Assembly: GCA_963422735.1 (NCBI GenBank)
Contig: OY730476.1
Location: 3,968,001 to 4,032,000, forward strand
Direction: 5' to 3'
Length of the DNA stretch: 64,000 nucleotides
Source: Candidatus Latescibacterota bacterium
Lineage (GTDB): Bacteria > Latescibacterota > UBA2968 > UBA8231
The number at the start of each line of letters is the position of its first letter. Position 1 is the stretch's first letter. The notes beneath the pieces were generated by a model that was not told the DNA's origin, did not search any database, and saw nothing but the letters and a program-made list of their open reading frames with translations. The position numbers and the translations under genes are program-made. Below are positions 35,206-40,703 of this stretch, in pieces.

Positions 35206-37731
35206 ATGCATAGATATGCCGCGGTGCTGGCTGCCGCTCTCCTCATCTCCAAGGCAGCCGCAGCCGGAGCCGATGAACAACCCTCCCGTACCGACACCAG
35301 CGAGGCCCAGATGCAGTTTTGGATGGCGCACCCCCAGCGCACCGCCCGCGCCGTGCGGGCTGAGGTGCCGCCGCGTCTCGACGGCGTCATCGACGACGAA
35401 ATCTGGCTGCGCGCCCCTCTGCACGAGGGGTTCACGCAGAACGACCCGGACAACGGCGAGCCTTCGACGCAACGCACCACCTTTCAGGTGGCCTACGACG
35501 ACGATGCGCTCTACATCGCCGGCATCTGCTACGACACCCGCCCCGACAGCATCACCGCGCGTCTGGCGCGGCGCGACGAATGGCGTGAGCGCGACCTGCT
35601 CGAGATCAACCTCGACCCCCACCACGACCATCAGACGGGCGTGTACTTCACCGTGGGTCCCTCCGGCTGGATCGAGGACGGGATCATCTACAACGACGAC
35701 GACTTCGACGATAGCTGGGACAGCGTGGCCGAGGTAAAGACGGCTCGACGCGCTGACGGCTGGAGCCTAGAGCTGAAGATCCCTTACCACGTCCTGCGCT
35801 TCGGCGAAAAGGAGAGCTACACTTGGGGGATCAACGTCTCTCGCAAGATCTCCCGCCGCGCCGAGTGGTCGCAGTGGAGCTTTACCCCCCGAGGAGTTAG
35901 TGGCTACGTCTCTCGCTTCGGTCATCTCGAGGGGATCGAAGGCATCCGGCCGCAGCGCAGCCTCGAGATATTTCCCTTCGCCTTGGGCCGCAGCACCCTA
36001 TCGACAGGGGACGGCGGCAGCGAGCACGACCTGTTCTCCTCGACCGGCCTCGACTTGCGCTACGGCCTGTCGTCGAATATCTCCCTCAACGCCACCATCA
36101 ACCCGGACTTCGGCCAGATCGAGGCCGATCCGGCCGTGCTCAATCTGGGTGTTTTCGAGACCTTTTTCCGCGAGCGCCGACCCTTCTTTCTGGAGGGTAT
36201 CCAGATATTCGAGTCGCCAGAGCCGAACATCGTCGGGATCCGCCGGCCCTCGCGCCTGTTCCACTCGCGGCGCATTGGCCGCCCGCCTTCGCGCTTTGAC
36301 CTGCCCGAAGACAGCGAGGAGGTGGACCGTCCCCACAACACCACGATCCTCGGTGCCGTTAAGGTCTCGGGAAAGACCGCGAAACGCACGGCCTTTGGCC
36401 TGCTCAACGCCGTCACCGGCCGGGAGGAAGCACTCATTGACCAGCGCATTGTTAGCACCGAGACAGGCCGCGTTGATACGGTGCGCCGCGATGTCGAGAT
36501 TGAGCCGATCACCAACTACTTTATCGGTCGCGTACAACAGGATCTGCTCACCAACTCCACCGCCGGAGCCCAGCTCACCGCGGTCAACGGCCGCGGCTTG
36601 GACCCAGCCTACGTCGGCGCTGGAGACCTGCACGTGAAGTGGTGGGAGAACGCCTACCGCCTCTATAGCCGGCTCGCCGTCAGCCGCGCTGGGCAGGAGG
36701 AGGAGCGCGGCACTGGCTGGGAGGGTGCGCTCTACTTTCAGAAGACGGGCGGTGCCTTCGGCGGCCAAGCGTACGTGGACGCGCAATCGCCCGAATTCCA
36801 AGCCAACGACCTAGGCTTCATGCGGCGCAACGACCGCATCCAAGCCGGTGCCCACATCTATCACGAGAAGCTCGACCCCTATTGGTTCGCCCGCCGCTCC
36901 GGGTTTAACCTCAATGTCTGGAACCACTGGAACTTCGCCGGTGAGAGGCTGTCCGAGGGCGTCAACTTCAACACCTGGCACAACCTGCACAATTACTGGG
37001 GATTCTGGATGGGCCTCAGCCACAACTTCGCTGCCTTCGACGACCTAGCCACTCGCGGCGGACCGCTGATGCGCTCGCCCGCCCACACTTGGTTTGGCAT
37101 GGACGTGTGGACCGACGACCGCAAGCCCATCAGTGCCTGGCTCGGCTGGAACGTCAGCGGGAGCCGGGGGGGCGACAACCTCGGATCTTGGGTCGGCTTT
37201 GAGATCGAGCTGCGGCCCGTCTCCCAGCTCGAGTTGGAAATTGAGCCGGGCTACAACTTCAACCGCAACTTCGCCCAGTGGGTGGATAACGAGGACGAGG
37301 ATGGCGACGGCGAGGACGACCGCTTCATCTTCGGCGAGCTTGAAAGCCGCGTCTTCGAGCTCGGCGTGCGCGGCACCTGGGCTTTCACCCCTAGCCTGAG
37401 CCTGCAGCTATTCGCGCAGCCCTTCGTGACAACCGGCGACTACGGTGCTATCAAGGAATTGGCGCGCCCGCGGTCCTACGAGTTTTCTCCCTACGCCGGC
37501 CTTGAGGAAAACCCCGACTTCCGCCGCCGCGCACTGCGCTCCAACGTAGTGCTGCGCTGGGAGTACCGGCCCGGCAGTACGCTCTTCGTCGTCTGGCAGC
37601 AGAGCCGGGACCGCGCCTTCGACGACGTTCGCGACCCCAAGTTCCGCCCGGCCGGCGACTTGGGCCGCGCCTTCGCCGATGATGGCGACAATATCTTTTT
37701 AATCAAGCTCAACCGCTGGTTCGGGCTGTAG
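35206..37731 (+). CDS. Secreted/outer-membrane DUF5916 protein with an N-terminal CBM9-like domain
   Basis: Signal peptide; PRLDG, YDDDALY, WSLELKIP, NPDFGQIEAD, ERRPFFLEG, RWEYRPGS. Confidence 0.88.
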   Translation: MHRYAAVLAAALLISKAAAAGADEQPSRTDTSEAQMQFWMAHPQRTARAVRAEVPPRLDGVIDDEIWLRAPLHEGFTQNDPDNGEPSTQRTTFQVAYDDDALYIAGICYDTRPDSITARLARRDEWRERDLLEINLDPHHDHQTGVYFTVGPSGWIEDGIIYNDDDFDDSWDSVAEVKTARRADGWSLELKIPYHVLRFGEKESYTWGINVSRKISRRAEWSQWSFTPRGVSGYVSRFGHLEGIEGIRPQRSLEIFPFALGRSTLSTGDGGSEHDLFSSTGLDLRYGLSSNISLNATINPDFGQIEADPAVLNLGVFETFFRERRPFFLEGIQIFESPEPNIVGIRRPSRLFHSRRIGRPPSRFDLPEDSEEVDRPHNTTILGAVKVSGKTAKRTAFGLLNAVTGREEALIDQRIVSTETGRVDTVRRDVEIEPITNYFIGRVQQDLLTNSTAGAQLTAVNGRGLDPAYVGAGDLHVKWWENAYRLYSRLAVSRAGQEEERGTGWEGALYFQKTGGAFGGQAYVDAQSPEFQANDLGFMRRNDRIQAGAHIYHEKLDPYWFARRSGFNLNVWNHWNFAGERLSEGVNFNTWHNLHNYWGFWMGLSHNFAAFDDLATRGGPLMRSPAHTWFGMDVWTDDRKPISAWLGWNVSGSRGGDNLGSWVGFEIELRPVSQLELEIEPGYNFNRNFAQWVDNEDEDGDGEDDRFIFGELESRVFELGVRGTWAFTPSLSLQLFAQPFVTTGDYGAIKELARPRSYEFSPYAGLEENPDFRRRALRSNVVLRWEYRPGSTLFVVWQQSRDRAFDDVRDPKFRPAGDLGRAFADDGDNIFLIKLNRWFGL

Positions 37732-37751
37732 GAGCGGAAGGTGGTCAGATT

Positions 37752-37829
37752 ATGGCAGGGGAACGAAGCGAGGTTGGGCGATGTACACCTTTCCTCATAC
37801 GCACGAATAATAATCTGCTGGCCCCATAG
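37752..37829 (+). CDS. Candidate attenuator leader peptide 1 (25 aa, NNN)
   Basis: MAGERSEVGRCTPFLIRTNNNLLAP*; AAT x3 at 37806-37814; AAGGTGG upstream; followed by a terminator hairpin. Confidence 0.5.
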   Translation: MAGERSEVGRCTPFLIRTNNNLLAP

Positions 37830-37863
37830 CGCGTGTTCTGACGACTGACTCCAACTAAATTTT

Positions 37864-37906
37864 AAAACCCGTCGCGAACGCGCATCGCGGCAGGTTTTCT
37901 GTTTTT
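37864..37906 (+). terminator. Intrinsic terminator 1 in the aspS leader
   Basis: Stem AAAACCCGTCGCGA/TCGCGGCAGGTTTT (14 positions, one mismatch, one G-U), 7-nt loop, tail TTTTCTGTTTTT. Confidence 0.75.
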
Positions 37907-37919
37907 AGGAGCTATTGCA

Positions 37920-38012
37920 ATGACATTCCGACACAAGCACACGGCACGCACCTTTTCGCATAACGACAATGACAATAATCCCGCCATGCAGACTCGATGG
38001 CGTTGGCCGTGA
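37920..38012 (+). CDS. Attenuator leader peptide 2 (30 aa, NDNDNN)
   Basis: AGGAG RBS at 37907-11; MTFRHKHTARTFSHNDNDNNPAMQTRWRWP*; six consecutive Asn/Asp codons at 37962-37979. Confidence 0.82.
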   Translation: MTFRHKHTARTFSHNDNDNNPAMQTRWRWP

Positions 38013-38032
38013 TCGGATTCTACCTTCACCCC

Positions 38033-38071
38033 AACCCGCTGTCGCGCCTCGCGCCGATGGCGGGTTTTTTT
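38033..38071 (+). terminator. Attenuator terminator 2 upstream of aspS
   Basis: 12-bp stem AACCCGCTGTCG/CGATGGCGGGTT with a T7 tail, ending 29 nt before the aspS ATG. Confidence 0.9.
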
Positions 38072-38100
38072 ATGTCCATCTGACAACCTAGAGGCTACCC

Positions 38101-39861
38101 ATGCACCGCTATCGCACCCATACCTGTGGCGAACTCCGCAAGCACCACGCCGGCCAAACCATTCGCCTGAGCGGCTGGATCCACGGCCGCAGGGACCACG
38201 GAGGCATATTGTTCCTCGACCTGCGCGATCACTACGGCATTACCCAGCTCGTGATCTCGCCGGAGAATGACGCTGTGGCAACCGCAGCAAAGGTCCTCCG
38301 CGAGTCCGTAGTCCGCGTCGTAGGCAACGTGTGCGCCCGGTCGCCTGCGACCATCAATAGCGCGATGGAGACTGGAGAGGTGGAAATCGCCGTCCGCGAG
38401 CTAGAAGTGCTCTCGCCAGCCGCGCCGCTCCCTTTTTCCGTGGCGGAAGACTCCGAAGTAGGGGAAAGCACCCGGTTGTCCTATCGCTTCCTGGACCTGC
38501 GCCGGGCCGGGCTGCACCGCCGCATTCAGCTCCGCTCGGAAGTGATCGCCAGCATCAGACGGCGCATGACAAAGATGGGCTTTGCCGAGTTCCAGACGCC
38601 TATTCTCACCAGCAGCTCGCCCGAGGGTGCGCGAGATTACCTCGTGCCGAGTCGGTTATATCCCGGCCGGTTCTACGCGCTGCCACAGGCACCGCAGCAG
38701 TTCAAGCAGTTGCTGATGGTGTCCGGCTTCGATCGCTACTTCCAGATCGCGCCCTGCTTTCGCGACGAAGACGCCCGCGCCGACCGCTCCCCCGGCGAAT
38801 TCTATCAACTCGATCTCGAAATGGCCTTCGTCGAGCAGGAGGATGTATTGGCTGTGGTCGAGGAGCTCTTTTTCGGTCTCTTTCGAGAATTCACCGATTG
38901 GGAAGTGCCCACGCCGCCGTTCCCGCGTCTTTCCCACGCCGCCGCCATGCTGCGGTTCGGTACAGACAAACCAGACCTACGCTTCGGGCTCGAAATCCAG
39001 GACCTCTCCGAGATCTTTGCAGGCTCCTCGTTTAGGCTGTTCAGAGACATCGTCGCAGCAGGAGAGGTCGTCCGCGCCCTGTGCGTTCCCGGACTGGAGG
39101 GGCAGCCGCGCTCGTTTTTCGACAGCCTCGAAGCGTTCGTCAAAGAAGCAGGCGGCAAGGGGCTGGCGCACCTCATCAACGGAGCGCAGGCCACAGGCTC
39201 AATCGCCGCAGCTCTAGAACAGAGCGTGCGTAGCCGCATTATCGAGGAATGTGCAGCCGCTCCGGGATCAGCCATTTTCTTCATCGCCGGACCACCAGCC
39301 GAGGCAGCGGCCCTAGCGGGACGGTTGCGCCTGCATCTGGCAGACCGGCTCGATTTGCGTCGCGAGGGTTGCTATGAATTCTGCTGGGTCGTCGATTTTC
39401 CCATGTACGAATGGGACGCGGAACGCGCTTGTGCCGCCTTTTCGCACAACCCGTTCTCCATGCCGCAGGGGGGCATGACTGCTCTGGAAGGCCAGCCGCC
39501 GCTGGATATCAAGGCGTATCAGTACGACATCGTCTGCAATGGCCTCGAACTGTCGAGCGGTGCCATCCGCAATCACAGACCGGACATCATGTACAAGGCG
39601 TTTGAGATTGCCGGGCACTCGCGCCGGGAAGTGGATCGCAGGTTCGGGGGCATGATCCGCGCCTTTCGCTACGGCACTCCGCCCCATGGCGGCATCGCGC
39701 CTGGCATCGACCGCATCGTCATGCTGCTAGCGGACGAACCGAACATACGAGAAGTCATCGCCTTCCCGATGAACCAAAATGCGCAAGATCCGCTCATGGG
39801 CGCGCCGGGCGAGGTGTCGCCTGAGCAGTTGCGGGAGCTACACATCGCAATCCGGGAGTGA
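38101..39861 (+). CDS. aspS: Aspartate-tRNA ligase, probably non-discriminating (Asp/Asn)
   Basis: YRTHTCGEL, RRDHGG, PEGARDY, QIAPCFRDED, EFYQLD, HNPFSMP, PPHGGIAPGIDR. Confidence 0.97.
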   Translation: MHRYRTHTCGELRKHHAGQTIRLSGWIHGRRDHGGILFLDLRDHYGITQLVISPENDAVATAAKVLRESVVRVVGNVCARSPATINSAMETGEVEIAVRELEVLSPAAPLPFSVAEDSEVGESTRLSYRFLDLRRAGLHRRIQLRSEVIASIRRRMTKMGFAEFQTPILTSSSPEGARDYLVPSRLYPGRFYALPQAPQQFKQLLMVSGFDRYFQIAPCFRDEDARADRSPGEFYQLDLEMAFVEQEDVLAVVEELFFGLFREFTDWEVPTPPFPRLSHAAAMLRFGTDKPDLRFGLEIQDLSEIFAGSSFRLFRDIVAAGEVVRALCVPGLEGQPRSFFDSLEAFVKEAGGKGLAHLINGAQATGSIAAALEQSVRSRIIEECAAAPGSAIFFIAGPPAEAAALAGRLRLHLADRLDLRREGCYEFCWVVDFPMYEWDAERACAAFSHNPFSMPQGGMTALEGQPPLDIKAYQYDIVCNGLELSSGAIRNHRPDIMYKAFEIAGHSRREVDRRFGGMIRAFRYGTPPHGGIAPGIDRIVMLLADEPNIREVIAFPMNQNAQDPLMGAPGEVSPEQLRELHIAIRE

Positions 39862-40003
39862 AAGACGCTTTCGGGTGCTTTGGTGCGACCACTTTACTTC
39901 CTCGCGGTGATCCGCGGCGCTTTCTGGCCATTTTTATCAAGAGGGTTCTTGACGCTTTGGGTTCACAATTCTATAGATGGAATGCTACGAAAGGGGAGTA
40001 TAT

Positions 40004-40222
40004 ATGATGGCTGTGCTACGAGAGAAATTCTCCACGGAGTTGCTGGCCGCAGTGCGCGAAATTGCCCGCAAGGAAGGTCGTCATTTCCAAGCAGTGCTGG
40101 AAGAGGCTATGCGAGAATACATTGAAAACCGCGCTCAGGGAAAGCCCCGGGCTTTGGTTATGGCTCATTTCCAAACCAGTGTCGAGAAAAATCGTCGCCT
40201 AGGCAAAATGCTGGCCAAATGA
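40004..40222 (+). CDS. Ribbon-helix-helix type antitoxin (partner of the Doc-like toxin)
   Basis: REKFST...VREIARKEGRHFQAVLEEAMREYIE; GGGGAG RBS; ATGA overlap with the toxin gene. Confidence 0.75.
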   Translation: MMAVLREKFSTELLAAVREIARKEGRHFQAVLEEAMREYIENRAQGKPRALVMAHFQTSVEKNRRLGKMLAK

Positions 40223-40703
40223 CCCATGACTGCCCAACCATCGAGGAAGTCGTCGCCATGCACCACGCCCTGATTAGTGCTTTGGCGGCTCACTAGGCAT
40301 CCGCGATGAAGGTGCCCTCGCCTCCGCACTCAGGCACCCCCAGCTTGGATACTACGACGGGCTCATTCAAGAAGCGGCTGCCCTTATGGAGAGCCTAGCC
40401 AACAATCATGCATTCGTGGACGGGAATAAGCGGGTCGCCTTTTTCGTCACCGACACCTTTCTGCGCATGGACGGCCGCTTCATCAACTGCGACAACGATG
40501 AGGCATACGCCTTCTTCATGCGTTCGTTCCGATTCACCGAATTGAAAAGGTCGAACCCCTCTCGGGGTCTTGACAGCCTACGGACAGGAGCGCGGATAAG
40601 CCATTTTCCCACACCCATAAAAAAGTCGCTGAACTATTGCGACTGTTCTACTTCCCAAACGCGGCATTGGCGTCGTAAGGGCCCGTCAGAAGCTCCCTAC
40701 TGA
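40219..40703 (+). pseudogene. Fic/Doc family toxin, frameshifted
   Basis: MTHDCPTIEEVVAMHHALI, frameshift near 40280, then FGGSLGIRDEGALASAL...NHAFVDGNKR; the C-terminus also looks eroded. Confidence 0.85.

Follow-up and report, generated by a model that had tools for sequence, protein, structure and literature searches.

Ribosome-mediated attenuation is textbook regulation, with the pheST operon of Escherichia coli (pheM leader) and the trp, his, thr and leu leaders as its familiar examples. Here, we analysed a 64,000-nucleotide (nt) stretch of the genome of a Candidatus Latescibacterota bacterium (assembly GCA_963422735.1, contig OY730476.1, positions 3,968,001 to 4,032,000 of the forward strand; hereafter the window, whose own coordinates are used below), in which an earlier note had flagged a leader-peptide attenuator ahead of aspS, the gene for aspartyl-tRNA synthetase (AspRS). 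We found that the gene in question, aspS2, encodes an accessory enzyme (AspRS2), and that the flagged element (unit 2) is directly adjoined upstream by a second, related leader-plus-terminator unit (unit 1, 37752-37906) absent from that note; all features described here lie on the + strand. We consider it fairly probable that the two units are tandem ribosome-dependent attenuators that sense charged tRNA-Asn, and tRNA-Asp to a lesser degree, and induce a probably non-discriminating AspRS2 for tRNA-dependent asparagine (Asn) synthesis. Attenuation itself has good in silico support, and the specificity of AspRS2 is what we infer from the evidence assembled below.

The general mechanism of leader-peptide attenuation is described in the relevant sections of PMC2659441. 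In common with E. coli pheST and the trp, his, thr and leu leaders, the locus combines a translated leader holding a run of regulatory codons with a terminator and an alternative antiterminator, and pheST provides an example of leader attenuation governing an aminoacyl-tRNA synthetase operon, as we propose for aspS2. In pheST and the classical leaders the codons match the enzyme's own amino acid, whereas here mostly Asn codons precede an enzyme for aspartate (Asp); the locus further differs from them in its tandem units, in a unit 1 without a 1:2 hairpin (the pairing of leader segments 1 and 2), in the absence of an Rfam leader match and in its phylum, Latescibacterota.

Saad and colleagues reportedly described, in 2012, the T-box of the tRNA-dependent transamidation operon of Clostridium acetobutylicum. 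In that organism, a T-box reading tRNA-Asn controls the transamidation operon (Saad et al. 2013, as summarised in a section of PMC4052509). Like this T-box, the proposed aspS2 switch would be an RNA that reads tRNA-Asn charging and governs an extra route to Asn-tRNA(Asn) amid redundant routes; unlike the T-box, which binds uncharged tRNA directly, its sensor would be the translating ribosome, and in contrast to the clostridial operon, only aspS2 follows the switch here, with gatB located elsewhere and leaderless. On the side of the enzyme, AspRS2 together with GatCAB forms the sole asparagine route of Thermus thermophilus and Deinococcus radiodurans despite the presence of asparaginyl-tRNA synthetase (AsnRS), according to the parts of PMC2330236 and PMC4206432 that treat these bacteria. 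The window's genome resembles theirs in encoding AsnRS, glutaminyl-tRNA synthetase (GlnRS), GatCAB (represented here by gatB) and two AspRS, with neither AsnA nor AsnB found. The second AspRS of Thermus and Deinococcus is of archaeal type, with no leader control described in those parts, whereas AspRS2 of the window is of bacterial type with a GAD domain; sister families of the window's class possess an archaeal-type enzyme like that of Thermus and Deinococcus, behind the same kind of leader. In Bdellovibrio bacteriovorus, a lone non-discriminating AspRS supplies GatCAB with Asp-tRNA(Asn) as the only route to asparagine (PMC4206432, section on this species). Bdellovibrio shares with the window's genome AsnRS, GlnRS, GatCAB and the lack of an Asn synthetase, and its bacterial-type AspRS serves tRNA-Asn, but this species possesses just one AspRS, with no report of an attenuator in the section concerned. 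Finally, the second tryptophanyl-tRNA synthetase of Streptomyces, TrpRS1, is reported to be under a Trp leader attenuator. This enzyme is inducible and provides antibiotic resistance, as stated in excerpts of a review (PMC9437257); as proposed for aspS2, an auxiliary synthetase paralogue stays off until its tRNA goes uncharged, whereas the purpose of TrpRS1 is antibiotic resistance and the amino acid sensed is the cognate one.

What the earlier note had read from the letters of unit 2 was confirmed by our inspection. The Shine-Dalgarno AGGAG (37907-37911), kept in tandem loci, stands 8 nt ahead of the ATG at 37920, and the open reading frame (ORF) list gives a 30-codon leader ORF at the same coordinates (37920-38012; product MTFRHKHTARTFSHNDNDNNPAMQTRWRWP, then stop), whose sole Asn and Asp residues are encoded by six consecutive codons, AAC GAC AAT GAC AAT AAT (37962-37979), and which ends in Pro-UGA (38007-38012, stop TGA at 38010-38012). 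Segment 1 (CGCCAT, 37982-37987), the 5' arm of the 1:2 hairpin, begins 3 nt past the last Asn codon and is complementary to ATGGCG at 37997-38002. Segment 2 (GATGGCGTTGG, 37996-38006), both the 3' arm of that hairpin and the 5' strand of the antiterminator, lies within the last five codons of the leader, stops 4 nt short of its stop codon and is complementary to part of segment 3 (CCAACCCGCTGTC, 38031-38043). With segment 3, a GC-rich terminator hairpin (38035-38064) and a tract of seven T (38065-38071) make up a terminator region (38031-38071, -20.9 kcal/mol) that was also found by a terminator pattern scan. Folding 37900-38085 yielded the 1:2 hairpin plus the terminator as the minimum free energy (MFE) structure, and because the antiterminator overlaps the 5' arm of the terminator, the geometry of the sequence makes the two pairings mutually exclusive in silico. 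The aspS2 ATG follows at 38101. A transcription start that bypassed the terminator, named in the earlier note as a refutation, receives no support from a promoter scan, a prediction only, which found no promoter-like site between terminator 2 and the gene. An Rfam cmscan of 37000-39000 at E <= 1 returned no leader family and no T-box (RF00230), and its single match, to a long noncoding RNA on the opposite strand, was at chance level.

The arrangement is kept wherever it can be read in the family. Of the 76 genomes of the family, 33 carry an aspS2 orthologue, spread over 8 of 18 genera and with a lowest identity of 63%; two of these loci are truncated by contig ends, and all 31 that are evaluable upstream (8 genera) possess one or more leader ORFs that are rich in Asn and precede a terminator, which starts 22 to 38 nt past the leader stop. 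The alignment of upstream regions called for by the earlier note was therefore in its favour, with the Asn-rich upstream ORF and terminator kept in 31/31 loci and the antiterminator covarying. Sixteen loci are tandem, 12 have unit 1 only and three have a unit-2-type element only; where unit 1 stands alone, its own AGGAG acts directly for aspS2, so that gains or losses of units have taken place between two GGAG sites. The codon run of unit 2 orthologues reads NNDDNN, NNNDNN or NDNDNN. Gaps observed within the aligned leader ORFs measure 3 or 6 nt and spacers show gaps of 1, 2 and more, an in-frame pattern that fits translation of the leaders. Outside the phylum, no comparable leader was found upstream of the 76 most similar aspS genes, in a survey of 80 loci (4 from Latescibacterota) that returned two weak chance matches. 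One genome of the genus (G021:C1:4024545-4025211) holds only a fragment of aspS2 (86% identity, residues 384-586) with two in-frame TGA stops, probably a pseudogene.

These alignments bear on the simplest alternative, that no ribosome-dependent switch exists, the terminators being ordinary or controlled by a protein or RNA and the short ORFs incidental. Such a reading would accommodate an ordinary fold energy, and in the window unit 1 could also serve to terminate the upstream gene, but ORF, Shine-Dalgarno, Asn run and frame are kept in 31/31 loci down to 63% aspS2 identity, every gap observed within a leader ORF is divisible by three, the antiterminator always has its 5' strand at the ORF end, and no Rfam family, T-box included, matches the + strand at E <= 1. 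We hold it to be very improbable.

The codons of the leaders point to asparagine. Across the 4.95-Mb genome, on both strands and in all frames, we counted 9 places (15 overlapping matches) with six Asn/Asp codons in a row, against the approximately 0.16 runs expected from base composition, and the run of unit 2 is the only one with at least four Asn, the other eight being DDNDDN-type with two. In a genome scan of 2,917 terminator-like sites, the unit 2 leader (6/7) tops the short ORFs rich in Asn or Asp that precede terminators. Among the leader residues of 47 units, 18.2% are Asn, versus 3.0% in the genome's long ORFs, in line with the Asn part of the earlier claim of Asn/Asp sensing, and the rarer codon AAT accounts for 56% of leader Asn codons versus 33% genome-wide. 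Unit 2 and its relatives keep one to three Asp codons within the run, and unit 1 averages one. Asn-rich leaders were found neither before aspS1 (the gene for the other AspRS), asnS and gatB nor elsewhere in the genome.

A run of Asn codons, with 3 to 8 Asn per leader, is the only trait that every one of the 47 units shares. This counts against the possibility that arrest of the nascent peptide at its C-terminal tail (IRARWRWP-stop; IRRRAGP in sister families) is decisive, with the Asn run secondary. Termination is slow where Pro precedes UGA, and the tail is kept across families (PAIRARWRWP-stop in the window's family, f1; TRTRFRVP-stop in L128; PIRRRAGPA-stop in sister families f2 to f4), but the nucleotides that encode it are segments 1 and 2, so that constraint on the RNA alone could explain its conservation, and the tail of unit 1 differs (PLxPLRVF-stop). 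Moreover, a ribosome arrested at the stop codon would promote termination, so that such an arrest could complement codon sensing but not replace it. We judge it quite unlikely that the tail is the decisive element.

To locate antiterminators by folding, we took the part of each transcript that begins 12 nt beyond the last regulatory codon, where the ribosome would stall, and runs up to the terminator loop; in 44 of the 47 units, at least five bases of the terminator arm paired with the leader's final stretch. In the window, this procedure gave an antiterminator fold of -19.2 kcal/mol (z = -2.13) in unit 2 and one of 13 pairs and -17.4 kcal/mol (z = -3.7) in unit 1. In the alignment of unit 2 (19 rows), 91.2% of cells in the antiterminator helix (2:3) are paired, with four double-sided changes, a number reached by 0 of 500 shuffles, and the terminator helix has 97.3% of cells paired with three such changes (7/500 shuffles reach this). 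In that of unit 1 (28 rows), the antiterminator helix has 96.1% of cells paired and two double-sided changes (5/500), and the terminator helix, with 99.6% of cells paired, is invariant, showing no double-sided changes and leaving the shuffle test uninformative. The 1:2 hairpin of unit 2 has 86.8% of cells paired over its 19 rows, likewise with no double-sided changes and an uninformative shuffle test. The classical layout of 1:2, 2:3 and 3:4 pairings that the earlier note had assigned is accordingly backed by covariation for the 2:3 pairing and the terminator, whereas the 1:2 pairing stands in the MFE fold of the window and lacks covariation support. All of these pair counts come from related sequences, and the structures counted were taken from rows of the very alignments on which they were scored, a procedure that works in their favour; the counts demonstrate consistency, not proof.

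Unit 1 is best understood from the relatives, where it is intact: a leader of the form MMTRQNDRTQNNNNPLxxLRVF-stop stands behind a TTGACG-16-TATCTT promoter that finishes 9 nt upstream of the ATG, so close that the leader probably sits on a nearly leaderless mRNA. Its antiterminator comprises 13 pairs between the last codons plus stop (GCGTGTTCTGACG) and the 5' arm and loop of the terminator, and stalled-transcript folds revealed no 1:2 protector hairpin. Other sequence has replaced this promoter and the leader's 5' half in the window, where alignment with relatives leaves a leader ORF (37752-37829; MAGERSEVGRCTPFLIRTNNNLLAP, then stop) with three Asn codons, AAT AAT AAT at 37806-37814, and an early TAG end. 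The 5' strand of the antiterminator (GCGTGTTCTGACG, 37831-37843) can still pair with 37870-37883 in the stalled-ribosome transcript fold, and terminator scan and folds place a hairpin at 37868-37894 and its T-tract TTTTCTGTTTTT at 37895-37906 (the terminator as a whole spanning 37868-37906), the latter abutting the AGGAG of leader 2. This hairpin carries a C-A mismatch (-12.2 versus -18.4 kcal/mol in relatives), which is the sole unpaired cell in the alignment of the unit 1 terminator. Unit 1 therefore looks partly decayed in the window strain, and unit 2 is probably the main working switch there. The upstream gene (35206-37731) encodes an 841-amino-acid (aa) protein with CBM9 and DUF5916 domains and is syntenic with aspS2 in many relatives; as no terminator lies between that gene and leader 1 in the window, co-transcription of the two is possible.

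The regulated gene is an aspS, as the earlier note had stated, though an accessory paralogue, with the housekeeping copy located elsewhere in the genome. aspS2 (38101-39861) encodes 586 aa that match NCBIfam NF001750 at 791 bits (cut-off 443) and, in Pfam, comprise the OB fold, class II core and GAD insert of a complete AspRS. The other gene, aspS1 (G000:C1:870792-872537), is the copy common to the class, and its product is 44% identical to AspRS2 and falls in a separate clade. In a quick FastTree phylogeny of 99 AspRS, with outside rows picked by similarity to AspRS2, the 13 Latescibacterota housekeeping rows adjoin Bacteroidota, and the AspRS2 group (11/11 rows in one clade) lies across a branch marked 100* from them, on a side that includes alphaproteobacterial, Fibrobacterota, Lentisphaerota and some Bacillota enzymes. 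None of five alphaproteobacterial genomes from that side has asnS, and their AspRS must therefore, we infer, serve tRNA-Asn; of five Bacteroidota genomes from the AspRS1 side, two have gatB and three do not, an ambiguous split as to whether enzymes of the AspRS1 clade are discriminating by necessity.

The genome of the window encodes AsnRS (asnS, 470 bits), GlnRS (glnS, 688 bits) and GatB (556 bits; gatB was the gatCAB gene searched). At a genome completeness of 95%, it has no match to AsnA, and none to AsnB that passes the cut-off of 267 (best 55 bits). Its single tRNA-Asn has U1-A72 and its tRNA-Asp G1-C72; the former pair is the feature required by bacterial GatCAB, according to PMC4206432. 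Within the family, genes of the asnB family, a count that may include members other than true AsnB, occur in 8 of 33 aspS2-positive versus 29 of 43 aspS2-negative genomes, a descriptive comparison of related and hence not independent genomes. AspRS2 is probably non-discriminating, given that control mainly by Asn codons fits only an enzyme that relieves a shortage of Asn-tRNA; the same specificity would fit the position in the tree, the leaders before enzymes that pass TIGR00458 (see below), the distribution of asnB and the absence of leaders at aspS1, asnS and gatB. The region ahead of gatB (1387120, G000:C1) contains, some 240 to 170 nt from the gene, a short tandem repeat in which GTGGTTA and GTGGTCA alternate.

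We propose that the switch would operate as follows. When Asn-tRNA is ample, the ribosome would reach Pro-UGA and cover segment 2, whereupon the terminator would form and transcription would end before aspS2. When Asn-tRNA or Asp-tRNA is scarce, the ribosome would stall with a codon of 37962-37979 in its A site and mask segment 1, leaving segment 2 free to pair with 38031-38043 before the 3' arm of the terminator is made, and polymerase would enter aspS2. Unit 1 would have two structures only, with the antiterminator as default when the leader is untranslated, and with two units in series, the off-state would be multiplied and the response sharper. Asp-tRNA(Asn) made by AspRS2 would then be amidated by GatCAB, such that the switch would turn on tRNA-dependent asparagine synthesis when imported asparagine fails to keep tRNA-Asn charged via AsnRS. 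The reading of unit 2 as a ribosome-dependent attenuator, put forward in the earlier note, is supported in silico by its conserved leader, its terminator and a covarying antiterminator at the ORF end.

Several observations weigh against this proposal. Asp, the other half of the sensing claim, is not enriched across the leaders (5.0% versus 6.2%). The promoter found ahead of leader 1 in relatives is missing in the window, where the sole + strand promoter-like site (37782-37811) would start a transcript inside leader 1 and the interval between terminator 1 and leader 2 is too short for a promoter. By the fold procedure, three of the 47 units (L124, L126, L128 unit 1) have no clear antiterminator; the fold energy of the whole 186-nt leader is ordinary (z = -0.86, with 34 of 200 shuffles as good); and the 1:2 helix, devoid of covariation, is lost in the four most divergent of its 19 rows. 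As to the enzyme, 73 of 76 family genomes have gatB regardless of aspS2, and 14 of 76 have neither aspS2 nor an asnB-family gene, so that AspRS1 may accept tRNA-Asn, or these strains need external asparagine. AspRS1 may thus also be non-discriminating and AspRS2 an inducible booster, which goes against AspRS2 as the only source of Asp-tRNA(Asn). Lastly, we found no checkable sequence feature that separates discriminating from non-discriminating bacterial AspRS, and a literature search for sequence determinants of non-discrimination gave nothing usable.

The occurrence of gatB without aspS2, compatible as it is with a non-discriminating AspRS1, also enters into another account, in which attenuation works as described and AspRS2 is a backup or inhibitor-resistant AspRS, induced when the housekeeping AspRS1 is inhibited by a natural aspartyl-adenylate mimic or fails under stress, in the manner of the inducible TrpRS1 of Streptomyces. 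Inhibition of a non-discriminating AspRS1 would starve tRNA-Asn as well as tRNA-Asp, matching the mixed run of codons, and divergent second synthetases that confer antibiotic resistance on demand are documented in excerpts of PMC9437257. Nevertheless, it is Asn and not Asp that dominates the leaders, sister families have the same leader type before their archaeal-type aspartate--tRNA(Asn) ligases, genomes with aspS2 tend to lack asnB-family genes, and no biosynthetic or resistance cluster adjoins the locus, its neighbours being the CBM9/DUF5916 protein and remnants of a Doc toxin. We regard a backup role as unlikely and prefer an AspRS2 induced for asparagine synthesis.

The comparison with sister families comes from a covariance model (R1) built from 19 unit-2 sequences of the window's family only. 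R1 recovered at full length (E = 4e-8 to 4e-7) the leaders of archaeal-type AspRS genes in sister families, where 7 of 8 loci fetched have a leader ending in NNNDDNNPIRRRAGPA, then stop, and a terminator. In 5/5 genomes checked, the genes behind these leaders pass TIGR00458, the model for aspartate--tRNA(Asn) ligase, at 398-421 bits, and the archaeal-type AspRS of one more family passes NF003483 at 474.6 bits. A sister-family locus (L136, G030) has two tandem leaders, ending in NPNPNRDNSGTQRRDRL and NPNPNSNFDNCAIRRRAGPWF (each then stop), with a terminator each, before an archaeal-type AspRS gene, and R1 matches them at E = 1.7e-7 and 1.2e-6. The Asn version of the leader is thus found before two evolutionarily unrelated kinds of spare AspRS. 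For unit 1 the match is weaker, with 25.9 bits in L003 and 18.6 bits in the window. Altogether, R1 matches 65 of 151 genomes of the phylum, all in four families of one class (f1 26/63, f2 18/30, f3 2/2, f4 18/19), counts that are upper bounds with some matches terminator-only, and it matches 0 of 36 genomes in ten other families of the phylum.

R1 also matched elements before other synthetase genes. Full-length matches before thrS contain frames rich in Thr and Tyr in the five loci inspected. In the window's genome (G000:C1:2167491-2167680), a promoter-like site, a 35-codon ORF ending in PTPTTATTTTTLCDG, then stop, a strong terminator and an AGGAG precede thrS (636 aa, its identity confirmed on a relative's orthologue); R1 cross-matches this element in relatives, and on its predicted parts it is a Thr leader-peptide attenuator. 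In one genus (L167:181-3064, G077; L153, G075), an asd-lysS pair lies immediately before aspS2 and is preceded by a separate R1-like attenuator, with a leader rich in Lys, Asn and Thr (containing KSKPNTKRDDNKRTAKGG), giving the order attenuator, asd, lysS, Asn attenuator, aspS2. In L163 (G044), lysS stands behind a unit-2-like leader ending in NNKNSKRDKNAHYTRWWGWP, then stop, with Lys and Asn as regulatory codons and the same tail of Arg/aromatic-Pro-stop as leader 2 of the window. Similar attenuators with differing codons therefore precede several class II synthetase genes. We tentatively raise the possibility, which we hold to be rather doubtful as a whole, of one evolving Latescibacterota attenuator family re-aimed by codon swaps (Asn/Asp for the spare AspRS, Lys/Asn for asd-lysS and lysS, Thr for thrS), in which the Asn version would be the on-switch of inducible tRNA-dependent asparagine biosynthesis and the Arg/aromatic-Pro-stop or RRAGP tail would act as a nascent-peptide brake, holding the ribosome in place over the antiterminator strand. 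Such re-aiming of codons, if true, would parallel the specifier codon changes of T-boxes.

In terms of novelty, the attenuation class is known, and Asn-codon leaders before a spare AspRS appear new, in that we found no printed description of them. The literature searched, with subscription journals largely outside it, yielded no printed Asn or Asn/Asp leader peptide for aspS; one paper lists, in the part concerned, the 5' untranslated region of Shewanella aspS as a 'tRNA synthetase leader', giving there neither a leader peptide nor a reference. The regulation of tRNA-dependent routes to Asn-tRNA is named as an open point in a passage of a field review (PMC2330236), and the only traceable regulatory example for such indirect routes is the Clostridium T-box. 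The same logic, from tRNA-Asn charging to an extra AspRS, appears here to be built from a different device, a ribosome-sensed attenuator, which occurs in an uncultured phylum, in tandem, and before AspRS genes of both bacterial and archaeal type. Asparagine would thereby join the amino acids with proposed leader-peptide attenuation, and the codon content of the leader predicts the substrate specificity of the enzyme, a prediction that published assays could test.

Downstream of aspS2, the interval 39977-40703 holds an 81-aa ORF followed by remnants of a Doc toxin split into pieces of 25 and 105 aa (TIGR01550 match of 31.4 bits, below cut-off), which together are probably a decayed Phd/Doc toxin-antitoxin pair.

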